64,000 bases of DNA from Candidatus Yanofskybacteria bacterium RIFCSPHIGHO2_01_FULL_44_24 (GTDB lineage Bacteria > Patescibacteriota > Minisyncoccia > 2-02-FULL-40-12 > GWA2-44-9): positions 1,016 through 65,015 of the forward strand of contig MGJK01000020.1 of the NCBI GenBank assembly GCA_001794215.1. The letters are read 5' to 3'. Both the position numbers and the translations under genes were made by a program. This document shows positions 18,857 to 48,970 of the stretch, piece after piece. Position 1 is the first letter of the stretch. Each line of letters starts with the position of its first letter. Under the pieces are notes generated by a model. It saw only the letters and a program-made list of their open reading frames with translations. It was not told the DNA's origin and did not search any database.

Positions 18857-20986
<2,130 letters not shown>

Positions 20987-21122: not shown

Positions 21123-21159
21123 GCATCAAAAAGGGGCTCAAATAGCCCTTTTTTGATGC
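21123..21159. terminator. Bidirectional terminator GCATCAAAAAGGGGctcaaataGCCCTTTTTTGATGC
   Basis: Near-perfect 14-bp hairpin between pheS (stop 21178) and the gyrB start. Confidence 0.6.
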
Positions 21160-21177
21160 TATCCACAAATCAATATT

Positions 21178-22308
21178 TCACCTCAGCTCCGCTCCAAATT
21201 GTTTGACGGTTTCTTTGTAAATCTTTCCTTGGATAGGATCGATCTCCTCGGTCGTAAGAGTCCTCTCATTAGAACGATAAACGATTCGATAAGTATAGCT
21301 CAGTTTCTCTTTTCCGAATTTTTCGGCATTTTCATATTTATCCAGAAGTTCGACTTGCTCCACTAAGTCCCCTCCTATATGGCGGATCAGATCAAAATAG
21401 TTATTCGGCACGAACGTTTTCTCAACCACAAAAGAAATATCCCGAGTAATGGGCGGAAATTTGGAAACTTCTTTAAATTTATTTCCGAGCTTAAGCTGTT
21501 TCTTCACCCGAGGATCATCGGACCATAATAACCGTATGTCGGGCAGTTCCATGGAAGCCATCGCCAAACGCTCTAATCCAAACCCGAAAGCCCAGCCGTT
21601 ATATCCGGTTACTCCGAAATTTGATAAAACGCTCTTTCTTGGTAAGCCTGATCCGACCATCTCCACCCATTTCCCGTTAATCTCCGCCTCCATCTCGTAG
21701 CTCGGATCGGTATAAGGGAAAGTATGCTCGTAAAAACGGAATTTAATATTTTCTCCAAAAATGCTTTTTCCAATCTTAGAAAGAGTATCTTTCAAATCAT
21801 CCGCCGCAACAGTTTGCTTACTGTCGGGAGCAAGGTAGAGTCCGCCGATCTGGTGAAAAACATTCATGTGGCTACGGTCGATTTCATCCTTTCTGTAGAC
21901 CTTGCCATAACAAACTGCCCCGAAGGATTCGTTTTTATTAATACGCCCTTGAATTTCTGGATGATTCAAATAATAGTACCAGAATGCGGTGTCATGGGTT
22001 CTTAAAACATTTTTCTCGTCAACATAATAAGTGTCCGACTTACTGCGGGCCGGATGACCTTCGGGCATATTAAAAAGATCGAATAGAATTTTTGTCGGAA
22101 TTATTTCCGGTATTTCAACGACATCGAACCCCCTCAGGACGCTTAGGGTCCGGTCGACTATTTCTTTCAAAGGGCTGTCTGAAGTCCGCGACAAGTCGGG
22201 CATATCTAAATACCTCTTTATCCTTCCACTTTCAAAATCACTTCTTTGATTAAGCTTGTCTCTTAGAATATGGGCTTCCTTGGAAACAATTTTGATATAT
22301 TTACCCAT
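21178..22308 (-). CDS. pheS: Monomeric phenylalanyl-tRNA synthetase: PheS catalytic core fused to a C-terminal FDX-ACB-like anticodon-binding domain
   Basis: Class II motifs (FNMPEGHPARSKSDTYY; GFGLERLAMA). The C-terminal ~95 aa (KFPPITRDISFVVEK...YTYRIVYRS) resemble the PheT/mitochondrial FDX-ACB domain. No pheT is adjacent. Confidence 0.8.
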   Translation of the reverse strand: MGKYIKIVSKEAHILRDKLNQRSDFESGRIKRYLDMPDLSRTSDSPLKEIVDRTLSVLRGFDVVEIPEIIPTKILFDLFNMPEGHPARSKSDTYYVDEKNVLRTHDTAFWYYYLNHPEIQGRINKNESFGAVCYGKVYRKDEIDRSHMNVFHQIGGLYLAPDSKQTVAADDLKDTLSKIGKSIFGENIKFRFYEHTFPYTDPSYEMEAEINGKWVEMVGSGLPRKSVLSNFGVTGYNGWAFGFGLERLAMASMELPDIRLLWSDDPRVKKQLKLGNKFKEVSKFPPITRDISFVVEKTFVPNNYFDLIRHIGGDLVEQVELLDKYENAEKFGKEKLSYTYRIVYRSNERTLTTEEIDPIQGKIYKETVKQFGAELR

Positions 22309-22510
22309 TATTATTTCTTCTGCTGATTATCCTCAAAGCCATAAAAGCGGTCAAAACCATACCGAGCATAGACATCAAAAACGAAGCGAAAAATAAGGCT
22401 TTTATTAAAAGCCCGACACGATAAGGATCGAAGTTGACCGCTATCATAGCAAGTCCGCCCAGTGAAAGGACGGTGATTAAAAAGACAATAAAAAACTGCC
22501 AATTAATCAT
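22301..22510 (-). CDS. hypothetical small membrane protein
   Basis: 69 aa with two hydrophobic helices. Confidence 0.3.
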   Translation of the reverse strand: MINWQFFIVFLITVLSLGGLAMIAVNFDPYRVGLLIKALFFASFLMSMLGMVLTAFMALRIISRRNNNG

Positions 22511-22532: not shown

Positions 22533-22812
22533 CGCGGGCGACGGGGCTCGAACCCGCAACCTCATCCGTGCACTTATCTAATATTTTCATATTAGGGTGG
22601 ACTATATCTTGCTCGTGTCTCAATAGAATTAAGATTTAGAGTCTCTGGTATCTAGTCTCTACGGCGCCCCCGCCATAGCGGGGTTCCCACGGTATTACCC
22701 GAGCTTTCGCTGTAGGGCTTCACCGTTATCCCAAAGTTATTCATCTTATAGTTTCCTATAAGAGCTGCGTGACTCCACAGGGATGCGATCTAACCAATTG
22801 ATCTACGCCCGC
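22533..22812 (-). tRNA. tRNA-Asp(GUC) interrupted by a group I intron between positions 35 and 36 (exon 1 22812-22777, exon 2 22570-22533)
   Basis: Spliced sequence: GCGGGCGTAGATCAATTGGTTAGATCGCATCCCTGT|CACGGATGAGGTTGCGGGTTCGAGCCCCGTCGCCCGCG. The cloverleaf is perfect. T-arm GCGGGTTCGAGYCCCGT matches E. coli tRNA-Asp. The discriminator is G73. The anticodon loop is CUGUCAC. CCA is not encoded. Confidence 0.85.
22571..22776 (-). mobile_element. Group I self-splicing intron (IC3 / Azoarcus-like), ~206 nt, with no internal ORF
   Basis: P1 by exon CUGU|G pairing with IGS CGCAG, placing a U.G wobble at the splice site. P2 hairpin CTTATAG-GAAA-CTATAAG. A GCGAAAGC GNRA tetraloop. The conserved GUAGAGACUAGA (J8/7-P7) word. 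The S element AAGATATAGTCC. Terminal G before the 3' splice site. Confidence 0.8.
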
Positions 22813-23564
22813 AATAAATTTTTAAAATAATGCTCAAATATAACCTTTTTTCTGCTTAAATACAACTTCCCGGCATCCTTATACATAAAGTTATATAGAC
22901 CAAAGCTGTCGTTAGAAGAGAAACATAATCGATGACCTTGGGCATAGAATAGAGTCCCTCCCTTAACAACCGCGTACTTTTTTAATACGCCCCAAAGTCC
23001 TTTTAAAAATTTCTTACTTCCTGAGGTAAGGCCGGTTATAATAATTTTGCTTTTATGCTTGCGGTCTTTTTTCTGATATTCCGACGCAGATACATGTCCA
23101 TCACCATCAAAATAGCCTCTTAAAAAATGTGGGGCAAGCGCTCGAGGTATCTTTGGCATTTTTAGAATTAGGCTTTTATTCGGCATAAAGCCCAGACGTA
23201 GAAGATCCTTGAATATCTCCTTGCTTCCAATCTGTATTTGATATGCCTTTTTCCAGTTTTTATTTTGTAAGTTTTTCTTTCTGATATAAATTTTATGATC
23301 AGAGCCTAAACAAAACTTGATCTTCTCAAGAATATCTCGGTCGGTACTATAGAATGCGATAAAATGAGCGCCTCGCTTGTTTTTGATCATATTCCCATCA
23401 GCCGCAAAAAACCCTAAAACATAAGTCATTTCTGGCGACCAATTCTTGAAAAAATCCTCATTCTTAGCTTTAAATACGGGCATTTTACCAATAAATTCTA
23501 CCGCATTTCCGGCAAAATTAAAAGCCCGCATAAAGCGGGCTTTTGAAAATTTTATCTGTCCCAA
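22803..23564 (-). CDS. LAGLIDADG homing endonuclease (double-motif), free-standing, 3' end overlapping the tRNA-Asp 5' end by 10 nt
   Basis: Two LAGLIDADG motifs: LGFFAADGNM and LRGYFDGDGHV. The likely true start is MPVFKAKNEDF at about 23483. The stop TAG lies inside the tRNA acceptor stem. Confidence 0.8.
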   Translation of the reverse strand: MGQIKFSKARFMRAFNFAGNAVEFIGKMPVFKAKNEDFFKNWSPEMTYVLGFFAADGNMIKNKRGAHFIAFYSTDRDILEKIKFCLGSDHKIYIRKKNLQNKNWKKAYQIQIGSKEIFKDLLRLGFMPNKSLILKMPKIPRALAPHFLRGYFDGDGHVSASEYQKKDRKHKSKIIITGLTSGSKKFLKGLWGVLKKYAVVKGGTLFYAQGHRLCFSSNDSFGLYNFMYKDAGKLYLSRKKVIFEHYFKNLLRA

Positions 23565-37329: not shown

Positions 37330-37500
37330 TATGAAGGGATTTACGGACCGCGACTGGCGGGAGTAAAAGGCAAGATTTTATCAAAAATCTATGCCGTGCC
37401 CTGAATAGGTTAAGGCGAAGCGTCTTTATATCATGCCCTTCATTGGCTAAATCCGAGTAAGATTTTATGACGCGCGCCCAATAACCCAAGACTGAGCGCC
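37330..37500. repeat. Second copy of the ~34-nt GC-rich repeat family (units at 37389-37422 and 37465-37500)
   Basis: ctatgccgtgccctgaataggttaaggcgaagcg matches ctatgccgtaccctgaatgggttgaagcagagc at 16373-16405. The flanking gaagggatttac and gagtaaaaggcaag words are also shared with 16208-16290. Confidence 0.7.
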
Positions 37501-40500
37501 TATTTTCTGACTCCCACCCAAATCTTTTTCTGCGGAGCCAATTCTAATTCTTTTTCTACATCGTATGCCTTAGTTCCGGTCTGACCGGCGATAAACTCTT
37601 TTAATAAAACCTCTTTCTTAATCTCCTCGGCCCATTGATTAACCGCCGCCGCCACGTCTTGGTCGTCTGAATGCCATCGGCTGAAAACTTTTTCATCCAG
37701 TCTGTATTTGGCTTCCTTTCGCATATCTTGCATCTGCCTGATCAACTCCCTCACATAACCTTCATGGATAAGCGCCGGATCAAGATCAAAATCAAGCGCA
37801 ATCTCCGCTTCTTGTTTTCTATTGTAGGCTAATTTCTTCACATTTAACTCGTCCTCAATCAAAACCTCGATGTCCTTCTGAAACTTGCCGCTTCTTTTGA
37901 TACTCGCCGAACGAATAGGCTGACGAACTTTCACCTGTTTTTCTTTTCTCAGAGCCAACCCCGCAGCCACAACATTTCGAGCTTCATCCATCTCAGCCTC
38001 CAATTTGAGGTTTATGGATTTCTTATCGGCCGATAGCCAATCGTGGAGGTGTACGCTTAAGGTTCCTGCTTTATAGCCACGATGCATTCTCCTATGGATA
38101 TCTTCGGCAAGAAAAGGAGCAAAAGGGGCTAAGATCTTGGATAAATCCAAAAGTAAAGACCTCAAAAGAACGAGGGCTTCTTTTCTTTTTCGGGAGCGTC
38201 TCAACCACCAATTAGACAGATCTTCGACGACAAATTTCTCCAGACTCCTTGAGGCCGAAGTCGGATCATACTTATCTAAATCAGACGTAACTTGGTCAAC
38301 CAAACCATTGAATTTAGAGAGCATCCATTTGTCTAATAGGTTAGAACTTGAGGCGAACGATTTGTAACTGGAGACTTCTTGCGAGTAAAGTTCGTAAAAT
38401 CTTACACAATTTTGCAAAGTAAATATAAACCCTTTAAGGCGGTCTTGGGCGCTCTTTTTACTTACGACTATGGATTCGCCTAAGGTGCTGGCGGTGTAGA
38501 AATACCAGCGAGTTGCGTCCACTCCGACTAAATCCATTATCTCATCAGGCCTGACCACATTGCCCAAAGATTTGGACATCTTCTTGCCATGCTCATCGAG
38601 GGCATGGCCGTTAACCATAACATTTCTGTAAGGAATCCCTTTGCCAAGCAATGTTGATATGGCCAATAAAGTGTAAAACCAGCCCCGAGTTTGATCGATG
38701 CCTTCTATGATGTAATCTGCCGGAAACTGATCTTTGAATGTTTTTGTATTTTCAAAAGGCCAGTGCCATTGGGCGTAAGGCATCGCTCCGGAATCAAACC
38801 AGACATCGATAAGGTCAGGAACTTTTTTCATAACTGCTCCGCATTTCTGACACTTGATGGAAATTTTATCGATAAATGGCCGATGAAGATCTAATTCTCC
38901 ATATTCATTTCGAGGAAGTGATTTCCATTCTAACGGTTCGAGCGAAGCCAAAGGAGGATACCAGCCTTTTTGCCTGTTTTCCAAAATTTCTTTTTGATCT
39001 TTTCCGGAGGCCATATTGTACAGGAGCCAAAGAGGATCTCCGTGTCCGACGATAAGTATCCGCTTTCCCGAATATTTAGATTCCAGATCGTTAATGAAAT
39101 CCTCCGTCCTCTTTCTGACATCGTTCCAGCTTTCTCCGTCGGGATGAGTTTTAAAATTAAAATCTGGTCTTAGGTCTTTAACCGGACAAAGCCTGTGGGC
39201 TTTGTCCTCGCAGCTTACGCCGTGAACTATTTCTGCAAGCCTTTGATCTTCTTCTACTTTCACATGGATTAGTCTGCCGATAATTTCTGCCGTTTCTTTG
39301 GTACGCATGAAAGGAGAGGTGAAAATGATATCCGCCCCGCCCTTTCGGTCAAGTTCTTTGGCGGCCTTTTCAACCTGCTTTTTCCCAATCGAAGTAAGCA
39401 GGTACTTGTCTGATTTCAACACGGAACTGATTATCATTTTCCCCGATTCATCCCGAGTAGTACTGCCGTGCCGAATAATATAGTATGTATTTTTCCGGCC
39501 TATCGCCCTGCTTTCAATTTCCTTAACCGAACCCAAAACTTCATGGCTCTGGCACTTTACACATTCCCAAACCGGCAACGGAGTACCCCAGTACCGTTCC
39601 CGGGAAAAAGCCCAATCCTTTCCTTCTTTGAGCCACTGGCCGAATCTCCCCTCTTTTATATGCTCGGGAATCCAATTAACCTTGGAGTTATCCTTGATCA
39701 GCTGATCCCGGACTGCCGATATTTTTATAAACCAGGAGCTCTTGGCGTAATAAAGGAGCGGGGAATGGCATCGCCAGCAGAACGGATAATCATGCTCGTA
39801 CTCCTCTTCTTTCAAAAGAGCGTTTTTTGCCTTGAGACTGTCCATTATTTTCTGGGTGGTTTTTTCTTCGGTCGGCTTGTCTTTGTGTTTTACGATCATC
39901 CCGTCAAAGTCCTTCCCCACGCCGGTGAATCTCCCCTGCTCATCAACAGTATGAAATTTGGGCAGGCCTAATTTTGTTCCAAGGACATAATCGTCTTCTC
40001 CGTACATCACGGCCGTATGGACCACGCCCGTACCGTCATCGGTAGAAACAAAATCAGCTTCATAAACTTTATAGGAAGTTTTTGATTTCAGCTCTTTGAT
40101 ATCGAAAAGGGGCTCGTACTCTAAACCAACCAGGTCGCTGCCCTTGAATTTGGAGTCGTGAATTTTCAATCCAGGATCGGCCCTGAAAACTTTCTCAACT
40201 AAATCCGAGGCGAGAATATATCTCTCCCCCTCTTTCTCGACAACTGCATATTCGATGTCCTTGCCCACCGCTAAAGCAACGTTACCCGGAAGCGTCCAGG
40301 GCGTGGTTGTCCAAGCCAGAATATAAGTCATTGCCGGAGACAACTCCTTAATTTTTAGTTTTAAATTTTTAATTTTAAACTTAATAATAACCGACCTGTC
40401 TTTTACTTTTTCATATCCCTGAGCAACCTCATGCGAAGAAAGCGGAGTTCCGCATCTGACGCAAAAAGGCAGAACCTTATGGGCGCGGTACAGTAGCTTT

Positions 40501-40985
40501 TTTTTCCAAATTTGCTGAATGATATACCAGAGAGTTTCTATATAATTATTCTCATAAGTTATATAGGGGTCTTTCATGTCAAGCCAAAAACCCATTTTCC
40601 GGGTCATGGCCTCCCATTCTTCTTTGTATTTCCATACGCTTTCTCTGGCTTTCTTGTTGAATTTCTCGATTCCATAGTTCTCGATGTCTTTTTTGCTTTT
40701 GAACCCAAGTTCTTTCTCGATTTCGATTTCAACCGGCAAACCATGAGTATCCCAGCCCGCCTTTCTTAAAACAAAAAATCCCCGCATAGTTTTATAGCGG
40801 CAATACAGGTCCTTATAAACCCGAGTCAAAAAGTGTCCGATATGAGCCCTCCCGTTAGCAGTCGGCGGTCCTTCAAAAAAAACGAACCTCTTGCCCTTCC
40901 GGCGCAGATCTAAAGACTTTTTAAAAATATCGTTTTTATGCCAAAAATCGAGTGTTTCCGACTCAACTCTCTTGAAATCATACAT
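37500..40985 (-). CDS. ileS: Isoleucyl-tRNA synthetase carrying an inserted histidine-phosphatase (PGAM-like) domain
   Basis: HIGH (PPTANGRAHIGH), the editing-domain TTTPWTLP motif, WFDSG and KMSKS. Residues ~500-695 (nt ~38901-39488) read YYIIRHGSTTRDESGKM ... SPFMRTKETAEII ... ILIVGHGDPLWLL, the RHG / second-His pattern of the His_Phos_1 superfamily. They sit between the CxxC zinc motifs. Confidence 0.9.
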   Translation of the reverse strand: MYDFKRVESETLDFWHKNDIFKKSLDLRRKGKRFVFFEGPPTANGRAHIGHFLTRVYKDLYCRYKTMRGFFVLRKAGWDTHGLPVEIEIEKELGFKSKKDIENYGIEKFNKKARESVWKYKEEWEAMTRKMGFWLDMKDPYITYENNYIETLWYIIQQIWKKKLLYRAHKVLPFCVRCGTPLSSHEVAQGYEKVKDRSVIIKFKIKNLKLKIKELSPAMTYILAWTTTPWTLPGNVALAVGKDIEYAVVEKEGERYILASDLVEKVFRADPGLKIHDSKFKGSDLVGLEYEPLFDIKELKSKTSYKVYEADFVSTDDGTGVVHTAVMYGEDDYVLGTKLGLPKFHTVDEQGRFTGVGKDFDGMIVKHKDKPTEEKTTQKIMDSLKAKNALLKEEEYEHDYPFCWRCHSPLLYYAKSSWFIKISAVRDQLIKDNSKVNWIPEHIKEGRFGQWLKEGKDWAFSRERYWGTPLPVWECVKCQSHEVLGSVKEIESRAIGRKNTYYIIRHGSTTRDESGKMIISSVLKSDKYLLTSIGKKQVEKAAKELDRKGGADIIFTSPFMRTKETAEIIGRLIHVKVEEDQRLAEIVHGVSCEDKAHRLCPVKDLRPDFNFKTHPDGESWNDVRKRTEDFINDLESKYSGKRILIVGHGDPLWLLYNMASGKDQKEILENRQKGWYPPLASLEPLEWKSLPRNEYGELDLHRPFIDKISIKCQKCGAVMKKVPDLIDVWFDSGAMPYAQWHWPFENTKTFKDQFPADYIIEGIDQTRGWFYTLLAISTLLGKGIPYRNVMVNGHALDEHGKKMSKSLGNVVRPDEIMDLVGVDATRWYFYTASTLGESIVVSKKSAQDRLKGFIFTLQNCVRFYELYSQEVSSYKSFASSSNLLDKWMLSKFNGLVDQVTSDLDKYDPTSASRSLEKFVVEDLSNWWLRRSRKRKEALVLLRSLLLDLSKILAPFAPFLAEDIHRRMHRGYKAGTLSVHLHDWLSADKKSINLKLEAEMDEARNVVAAGLALRKEKQVKVRQPIRSASIKRSGKFQKDIEVLIEDELNVKKLAYNRKQEAEIALDFDLDPALIHEGYVRELIRQMQDMRKEAKYRLDEKVFSRWHSDDQDVAAAVNQWAEEIKKEVLLKEFIAGQTGTKAYDVEKELELAPQKKIWVGVRK

Positions 40986-48604: not shown

Positions 48605-48970
48605 GGGGATGTCGGGCTTCGACGAAGCTTACGACCGATAAATGCTGGGGGTGGCATGATCGTTCAGCCACGGAAATCACATCCGATCAATTGAATAGGT
48701 GCCAAAAATTCACCTAATTACGCTTTCGCCTAACATCGTTTAGGTAAGCCATTCCACCGCGGTGTCTACTGGCGGATCATGGAGTGTCATATTGTAGACT
48801 GGACAGTTTTCGTTTTTTTTCTTCCGGAGGCTGTTGAATAAATTAAAAGAAATAGCCGTAGATTATTTTGTCGGTTTTCTACTTTACGGCGAAAGACTAA
48901 ATCGTCTATCTCGGTACACATTTATCGGTATAACTTTCGGACGTGGATTCAACTTCCACCATCTCCACCA
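48605..48970 (+). ncRNA. ssrA: tmRNA (SsrA), one-piece, ~366 nt; tag peptide AKNSPNYAFA
   Basis: 5' GGGGAUGUCGGGCUUCGACG fits the tmRNA 5' consensus. 3' GGACGUGGAUUCAACUUCCACCAUCUCCACCA matches the E. coli 3' end GGACGCGGGUUCAACUCCCGCCAGCUCCACCA. Resume codon GCC at 48701; reading frame GCC AAA AAT TCA CCT AAT TAC GCT TTC GCC TAA with the stop in a hairpin. Confidence 0.9.

Follow-up and report, generated by a model that had tools for sequence, protein, structure and literature searches.

Is the α2β2 form of phenylalanyl-tRNA synthetase (PheRS), described by reviews of the field as conserved in all prokaryotes, truly universal among bacteria? The question is raised by a gene of Candidatus Yanofskybacteria bacterium RIFCSPHIGHO2_01_FULL_44_24, found at 21178..22308 on the minus strand of the stretch of DNA analyzed here (the window: 64,000 nt of contig MGJK01000020.1, positions 1,016-65,015), within which the host genome was read. 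The gene starts with ATG, encodes 376 aa plus a stop codon, and specifies a single-chain synthetase of the PheRS-M type. The bacterium is ultra-small; its sequence derives from metagenomes of Rifle groundwater, and the names of homologues assign it to the Patescibacteria/CPR. A preliminary description of this DNA had proposed a mitochondrial-type monomeric PheRS, with a PheS core fused to an anticodon-binding FDX-ACB domain and no pheT neighbor.

We put the probability at about 0.72 that the gene encodes a housekeeping single-chain PheRS which has replaced the canonical α2β2 enzyme in this lineage. We infer that the enzyme is specific for Phe and tRNA-Phe and acts as a monomer. The catalytic core would make phenylalanyl-adenylate (Phe-AMP), while tRNA-Phe would be recognized at its GAA anticodon by the C-terminal FDX-ACB domain. 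For one chain to hold both ends of the tRNA, this domain would have to move out of a closed into an open arrangement, as its counterpart does in human mitochondrial PheRS. The B1, B3/B4 (editing), B5 and B6/7 domains of the β subunit are missing, and because the editing domains are among them, proofreading of Tyr-tRNA-Phe in cis should be impossible. Some members of the clade encode a stand-alone B2 (tRNA_bind) protein just upstream, which probably helps in trans with the binding of tRNA.

Two domains in one reading frame

The open reading frame (ORF) holds a PheRS class II core together with a full-length FDX-ACB domain. The core, at aa 43-271 (21496..22182, minus strand), matches PF01409 (tRNA-synt_2d) with E 1.1e-53 and 182.6 bits, and the FDX-ACB domain of the B8 type, at aa 282-376 (21181..21465, minus strand), matches PF03147 over profile positions 1-94 of 94 with E 6e-24 and 84.7 bits. 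Both scores are far beyond chance and above the Pfam cut-offs of 19.8 and 31.1 bits, respectively. The coordinates of the fused gene in the preliminary description were exact, and its assignment of the C-terminal ~95 aa to FDX-ACB holds over the whole domain. The last ~107 residues also match the C-terminus of the pheT_bact model TIGR00472 (positions 693-798).

Ahead of the core lies a short helical region (aa 1-42, 22183..22308, minus strand), in which the structural model places helices at residues 10-21 and 25-35. The PheS N-terminal coiled coil (PF02912) found no match in the 376-aa protein at E<=0.1. The Joint Genome Institute (JGI) gene call is shorter, at 341 aa. Conservation across the family nevertheless extends to residues 5-35, and the long start is therefore the real one. 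Within the core are motif 2 (YGKVYRKDEIDRSHMNVFHQIGG, R139 to G155), the Phe-pocket strand F197-P-Y199-T200, and motif 3 (GWAFGFGLER, with A240 and R247).

The preliminary description's claim of mitochondrial kinship is borne out by both sequence and fold. The best sequence relatives in the PDB are structures of human mitochondrial PheRS, among them 3CMQ and 8P8X (200 bits, E ~3e-58), whereas bacterial PheS chains reach ~110 bits (E 1e-31) and PheT only ~31 bits. An AlphaFold model built with 41 family members has a mean predicted local distance difference test score (pLDDT) of 91.3 and a predicted template-modeling (pTM) score of 0.87. In a Foldseek search, the model matched the closed human mitochondrial enzyme (5MGH/3CMQ) with E 2e-35, a template-modeling (TM) score of 0.76 and a root-mean-square deviation of 3.8 A over 386 columns. 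The open form with bound tRNA (3TUP) fitted less well, with a TM score of 0.59, and bacterial PheS was matched over the catalytic half only (TM ~0.53). The predicted whole-chain fold and domain arrangement thus resemble those of human mitochondrial PheRS. Mitochondrial PheRS is described as a chimera that combines an α catalytic module with a β B8 domain, works as a monomer, has no editing function, and can stably make Tyr-tRNA-Phe (PMC3275996). A second comparison put forward in the preliminary description, with a spirochaete-like monomeric PheRS, has no basis that we know of. Spirochaetes have an archaeal-type α2β2 PheRS.

Distribution, canonical subunits and B2 proteins

When homologues were searched for in a set of 5.8 billion proteins, with results given as 90%-identity clusters, more than 7,700 clusters were found. 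The top 120, which were inspected, are 72-100% identical to the protein and carry the same two Pfam domains; leaving out P0001, which is the same gene in the 341-aa JGI call, the range is 72-86%. The organisms named in the top 120 are Yanofsky-, Giovannoni- and Doudnabacteria, Paceibacterota, the 'Parcubacteria/Patescibacteria group', or plain 'bacterium'. A scan of GTDB species genomes found relatives at no fewer than 558 loci. The best 80 of these, examined in detail, show 59-78% identity and belong almost entirely to Patescibacteria lineages or plain 'bacterium', adding Zambryski-, Taylor-, Jorgensen-, Kaiser- and Harrisonbacteria as well as Minisyncoccia, and including a closed 808-kb chromosome (OZ246418.1). 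Among 1.84 billion 50%-identity representatives, only 208 matched at E<=1e-30.

Mean column identity across candidate phyla is 80%, and in 45 of 51 loci conservation of the gene exceeds that of the adjacent gyrB (65% vs 58%). In many lineages the gene sits among core genes, including gyrB, secE-nusG-rplK-rplA, and tRNA-Met/Asp clusters. Judged from these alignments, the gene is under very strong constraint. Two side observations concern the collection itself. Metagenome-assembled genome (MAG) JACQLT01 has two 74-75%-identical gene copies, each near a contig end (contigs 1 and 3, loci L009 and L014), which is probably strain mixing in the bin. A 4.5-kb contig with a gene pair (L052) is filed under 'Candidatus Binatia', a label that probably reflects bin contamination.

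In a neighbor-joining tree with 50 bootstraps that included E. coli PheS, the family from the Candidate Phyla Radiation (CPR) and its 57%-identical sister P0121 group with P0124, from an Oligoflexia MAG, and with P0126, P0127 and P0132 (49/50 bootstraps). This grouping stands apart from a large cluster of eukaryote-like and phage-like sequences, and all of them are far from E. coli PheS. P0132 comes from Gracilibacteria and 'gcode 4' ACD genomes, and its gene (L091, 8001-9371) has ~12 in-frame TGA codons at Gly positions of the CPR family. Two of these fall at glycines of motif 3; the database translation read the TGA codons as Trp. The placement of TGA at glycines fits genetic code 25 (UGA = Gly), and a more divergent single-chain PheRS is therefore found in that CPR class too. 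Viral sequences were a further source of relatives. A 340,874-bp ENA contig encodes a 348-aa protein with core and FDX-ACB that passes the TIGR00469 cut-off (L089, 10001-11047). The contig is phage-like, with PhageMetallopep, PcfJ, an SNF2 helicase and many small unknown ORFs. As the 635-kb GenBank phage LR745206.1 also has a monomeric PheRS-type gene, huge phages evidently carry such genes as well. The other GenBank phage matches cover the PheS-type core only, and two of these are annotated pheS. A scan of IMG/VR found no contig carrying the motifs of the CPR-type family.

If the single-chain enzyme has taken over the housekeeping role, the canonical subunits should be missing from the genomes that carry it. 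The absence of the conserved pheS-pheT pairing, noted in the preliminary description, was upheld and extended. Searches of the window by tblastn with E. coli PheT and PheS found neither a pheT nor a second pheS, all matches being to the PheRS gene itself, and Pfam found no PheT among the ten largest window ORFs. Neither pheT (B3_4, B5 or CLM domains) nor a second pheS was found in the neighborhoods of 86 related loci, which were compared over +/-10 kb flanks (1.25 Mb in total). A census of CPR genomes points in the same direction, although its counts are totals per family, unlinked genome by genome to carriers of the single-chain gene: 1645 CPR genomes have canonical PheS and 1642 have canonical PheT, compared with 2118 for AlaRS, 2053 for HisRS, 2017 for SerRS, 2011 for ThrRS, 1985 for GyrB and 1983 for EF-Ts (Meheust et al. 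2019 Table S2). Both canonical subunits thus fall short by ~370-470 genomes relative to the other four synthetases and by ~340 relative to GyrB or EF-Ts. Bacteria outside the CPR have no such gap, with PheS and PheT at 1011 and 1046 vs 946-1057 (Meheust et al. 2019 Table S2). The sole documented reciprocal case is the MAG of Ca. Yanofskyibacterium parasiticum, all of whose 866 genes are listed. Here pheT (B3/4, CLM, B5 and FDX-ACB) adjoins pheS, and there is no further PF01409 or PF03147 gene. From these patterns we infer that the rest of the genome lacks canonical pheS and pheT. A surviving B2 module probably assists the single-chain enzyme in some lineages.

That module was recognized directly upstream of the PheRS gene in 18 of the 86 loci, where an ORF for a PheT B2 domain lies on the same strand at a distance of 2-148 nt (for example L005 9551-9979, L006 9606-9998 and L019 9582-9986). 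These ORFs are ~130-150 aa long in 15 of the 18 loci; the exceptions are one cut by a contig end, one taken from the earliest possible start, and one 122-aa piece. They match E. coli PheT residues ~41-150 with 31-44% identity (E 1e-9 to 1e-18), and their best NCBIfam match is TIGR00472, at positions 41-152, ahead of YtpR, TapR and MetG-C. The B2-only family comprises ~1,300 clusters, mostly of Doudnabacteria, and is always stand-alone. JGI labels its members 'PheRS beta chain'. That the B2 and PheRS genes are neighbors is borne out by their consecutive locus tags, HY336_02290 and HY336_02295. The B2-only protein may be a remnant of PheT, a tRNA-binding module that some members of the clade use in trans. 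No B2-only ORF was found anywhere in the window. A paper on tRNA identity in CPR reports that many CPR PheRS β subunits have no B2.

We rejected trivial origins of the gene. Neither a chance ORF nor an assembly chimera fits with the same architecture in at least 558 species, and a pseudogene does not fit with an intact and highly conserved reading frame. A simple-deletion fusion of pheS and pheT was rejected as the core is nearer to PheRS-M than to bacterial PheS, and is also disfavored by the position of the B2 ORF, upstream and not downstream.

The substrate pocket and competing explanations

Residues were compared among 99 other PheRS-type homologues, E. coli PheS and human mitochondrial PheRS. 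The protein keeps H105, R139, H147, F151-H152-Q153, F197, T200, S203, E205, A240 and R247, all of which are shared by essentially every one of the 99 homologues. E. coli PheS shares them too, apart from a Gln at the position of H105. We take these kept residues to include the motif-2 and motif-3 arginines and the equivalent of E. coli A294.

Several observations weigh against replacement of the canonical enzyme by a housekeeping PheRS, and some of these lie in the same active site. In at least 95% of the CPR family, Gly155 takes the place of the last acid of motif 2 (FHQxE/D). Of the 99 other homologues, 99 have Glu or Asp here, as does E. coli PheS; none of the 99 has Gly, and the nearest sister of the CPR family keeps Asp at this position. 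Trp110 replaces the usual Gln (Gln124 in the human mitochondrial enzyme), Tyr199 stands at the position of T. thermophilus Phe-α260, and the CPR family has Asp106 in place of Thr or Met. In human mitochondrial PheRS, Gln124 and Glu159 line the amino-acid pocket and form hydrogen bonds with the meta-hydroxyl of bound meta-tyrosine (m-Tyr; PMC3275996). The changes at Gly155, Trp110 and Tyr199 therefore indicate that the substrate pocket is remodeled, and the remodeled pocket might conceivably prefer a different amino acid. It is also plausible that the loss of polar pocket groups would disfavor Tyr and m-Tyr in a non-editing enzyme, with Asp106 as a relocated carboxylate.

The curated NCBIfam profiles are a second ground for caution. 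The protein scores 234.5 bits against TIGR00469 (pheS_mito), 158.9 bits against TIGR00468 (pheS) and 222.4 bits against NF051887 ('PheS-related mystery ligase SrmL'), below the respective cut-offs of 258.35, 237.45 and 300 bits; its sister sequence P0121 passes TIGR00469 with 264.3 bits. Canonical pheST is also present in some Paceibacterales, a canonical pheS-pheT pair could sit outside the 64-kb window, and the census of canonical subunits described above is not resolved by carrier.

Of the competing explanations, the one that survives best holds that the gene encodes a real PheRS that works only with the B2 protein, with an editing factor encoded on its own, or paired with itself as a homodimer in the class II style. 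In its favor are the dimeric state usual for class II synthetases and the B2-only ORFs described above, directly upstream in 18 of 86 loci and with ~1,300 clusters in the family. Nevertheless, ~80% of related loci, and the window itself, have no adjacent B2 ORF, and the closest solved relative, human mitochondrial PheRS, reaches full activity in monomeric form (PMC3275996). We regard an obligate partner or dimer as unlikely.

More improbable still is a paralogue, with a normal pheS-pheT pair elsewhere in the genome and a PheRS-M-like protein with another ligation target, such as an analogue of Phe, a special tRNA or an acceptor other than tRNA, a kind of role that NCBI's SrmL entry implies. 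An altered substrate is the alternative reading of the pocket changes and keeps this hypothesis alive, as the otherwise invariant motif-2 acid is lost and two more pocket residues are changed. SrmL is moreover matched almost end to end (positions 16-345 of 349, 222 bits), and a distant relative, P0124, is found in an Oligoflexia MAG. A non-reduced bacterium such as Oligoflexia is expected to have a canonical PheRS. Against a paralogue stand the SrmL score, which is below cut-off, the intact, full-length FDX-ACB domain, and the other conserved active-site residues, which are kept. The extreme conservation, exceeding that of gyrB, and the core-gene neighborhood are likewise at odds with it, as are the CPR-specific shortfall of ~370-470 genomes for both canonical subunits and the finding that the single MAG examined with canonical pheST is without a single-chain gene. 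A second PheRS-like enzyme would also seem an odd luxury in a genome of <1 Mb. Recent horizontal acquisition of an accessory gene, from a huge phage or from a eukaryote whose nuclear genome encodes the mitochondrial enzyme, is very improbable: the closest characterized relatives are eukaryotic organellar enzymes and monomeric PheRS-type genes do occur on the 340-kb phage-like contig and the 635-kb GenBank phage, but the CPR, P0121, Gracilibacteria and Oligoflexia sequences form a clade in 49/50 bootstraps and are not nested among the eukaryote-like ones, the family spans at least 558 GTDB species with conserved synteny, its GC content is ordinary for the window, and no IMG/VR contig has CPR-type motifs.

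Replacement of the canonical enzyme by a housekeeping single-chain PheRS is thus the explanation we prefer. It can be broadened to a scenario whose parts, taken jointly, we consider doubtful. Much of the Patescibacteria, namely subgroups of Paceibacteria, the Doudnabacteria and, with a more divergent version, the UGA-recoded Gracilibacteria, would have dropped the α2β2 enzyme for a non-editing chain of ~375 aa, with a pocket of Gly155, Trp110 and Asp106 that excludes Tyr and m-Tyr and a leftover B2 acting in trans in some lineages. The prokaryotic clade would then be the source or the sister of the mitochondrial and huge-phage monomeric PheRS, with no eukaryotic invention of this design.

The protein itself is not undiscovered, because public databases hold thousands of such sequences and UniProt names them PheRS. 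The family is mostly labeled 'hypothetical protein' by NCBI, 'PheRS alpha chain' by JGI and 'phenylalanine--tRNA ligase' by a UniRef/UniProt rule. Our literature search found no paper mentioning a single-chain PheRS in CPR. What appears to be unreported is that a whole bacterial clade probably relies on a single-chain PheRS, that it has a family-specific pocket and, in part of the clade, a trans B2 gene, and that a prokaryotic clade stands alongside the mitochondrial and phage enzymes. The 'mitochondria-only' PheRS design occurs in bacteria too. A minimal, non-editing PheRS is probably enough to sustain a free-standing cell lineage, which bears on translation fidelity in reduced genomes. Prokaryotic relatives are now available for the question of the origin of mitochondrial PheRS, and a naturally compact PheRS with an unusual pocket may be of use for enzymology and genetic-code engineering. 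There is also a practical consequence for marker-gene and KEGG Orthology surveys, which would mis-score such genomes as TIGR00468 and TIGR00472 are both missed. Orthology surveys would wrongly count both subunits because JGI calls the B2 fragment 'beta chain' and the single-chain enzyme 'alpha chain'.

Surroundings of the gene and comparison with known systems

The neighbors named in the preliminary description were located, with some refinement. Downstream is gyrB (18857..20980, minus strand; assigned by the Pfam domains of the called gene in L001), 197 nt from the PheRS gene. Among relatives, 26 of the 67 loci with enough flank have gyrB no more than 600 nt downstream, and it is nearby in many others. 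Between the two genes are a promoter-like site and, 30 nt past the PheRS stop, a terminator-like hairpin (21134..21148, minus strand). The hairpin is there as described, but it is a weak match to the consensus only and such sites are no commoner than in shuffled sequence (3 in the scan vs 2.2 expected), which makes it a weak terminator candidate. Upstream, the small membrane ORF is one of 69 aa with two hydrophobic stretches (22301..22510, minus strand), whose stop overlaps the PheRS start by 8 nt. It is poorly conserved, with a tblastn match only in L017 among the GTDB/NCBI relatives compared.

The tRNA-Asp(GTC) noted upstream does exist (22533..22812, minus strand), though split into exons 22812..22777 and 22570..22533 by a 206-nt group I intron inserted after U35 (22776..22571, minus strand; Rfam RF00028, 57.8 bits, match spanning 22578..22788). 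ARAGORN missed the gene because of this intron and calls tRNA-Asp(gtc) once 22776..22571 is excised. A free-standing LAGLIDADG_3 ORF of 253 aa (22803..23564, minus strand) has its stop codon inside the 5' acceptor stem of the tRNA. In relatives, tRNA-Asp is uninterrupted and mostly part of a tRNA-Met/tRNA-Met/tRNA-Asp cluster, while group I introns are found at other sites in L017 and L072. ARAGORN found no ordinary tRNA gene in the window, only a transfer-messenger RNA (48605..48970, tag AKNSPNYAFA). The ten largest window ORFs include DNA polymerase III alpha, ThrRS, GatB, IleRS, ArgRS and a type II/IV secretion-system ATPase. In the 1161-aa IleRS (37500..40985, minus strand), a histidine-phosphatase insert (PF00300 His_Phos_1, aa 502-671, E 5.6e-27) splits the class I catalytic domain into two stretches.

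Among known systems, SrmL (NF051887), on which our literature search found nothing published, is aligned by the CPR enzyme over nearly its full length (model positions 16-345 of 349), implying a shared layout of core and FDX-ACB. None of 10 diverse relatives of the CPR enzyme reaches its 300-bit cut-off. The B2-only proteins have their counterparts in stand-alone tRNA_bind proteins (YtpR NF045760, TapR NF045867 and the Trbp111/CsaA type), which share the OB-fold PF01588, a length of 130-150 aa and a place next to a synthetase gene. Unlike these, the B2-only protein scores higher with TIGR00472 (103-117 bits) than with YtpR (74-96) or TapR (39-53), all below the curated cut-offs. The PheRS-type genes of huge phages have the same compact two-domain layout of ~348 aa, but the CPR enzyme is ~41% identical to the L089 type and 26.5% identical to that of LR745206.1, and belongs to a different clade of the tree.

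Compared with the canonical (αβ)2 PheRS, the CPR core is 34% identical to E. coli PheS residues 108-327, and the C-terminal domain 24% identical to E. coli PheT 608-794 (B8). The CPR enzyme differs in having no PF02912 coiled coil, a TIGR00468 score below cut-off and no adjacent pheT, and, with no separate β subunit, none of its B1, B3/B4 editing, B5 and B6/7 domains. The closest likeness, in design and in predicted mode of action, is to mitochondrial PheRS (human FARS2, yeast MSF1; PheRS-M in AARS Online), a single chain with the same α-type core and B8/FDX-ACB domain, in which the B3/B4 editing domain is likewise missing, the position of human Thr235 is also Thr, and the specificity position in motif 3 is Ala. 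The CPR enzyme is bacterial (Patescibacteria) and not organellar, is ~30-40 aa shorter with no insertion between motif 2 and the next helix, and has Gly155 for Glu159, Trp110 for Gln124, Tyr199 for Phe and a new Asp106 relative to the human protein. Its place is in a clade of its own with other bacterial sequences.

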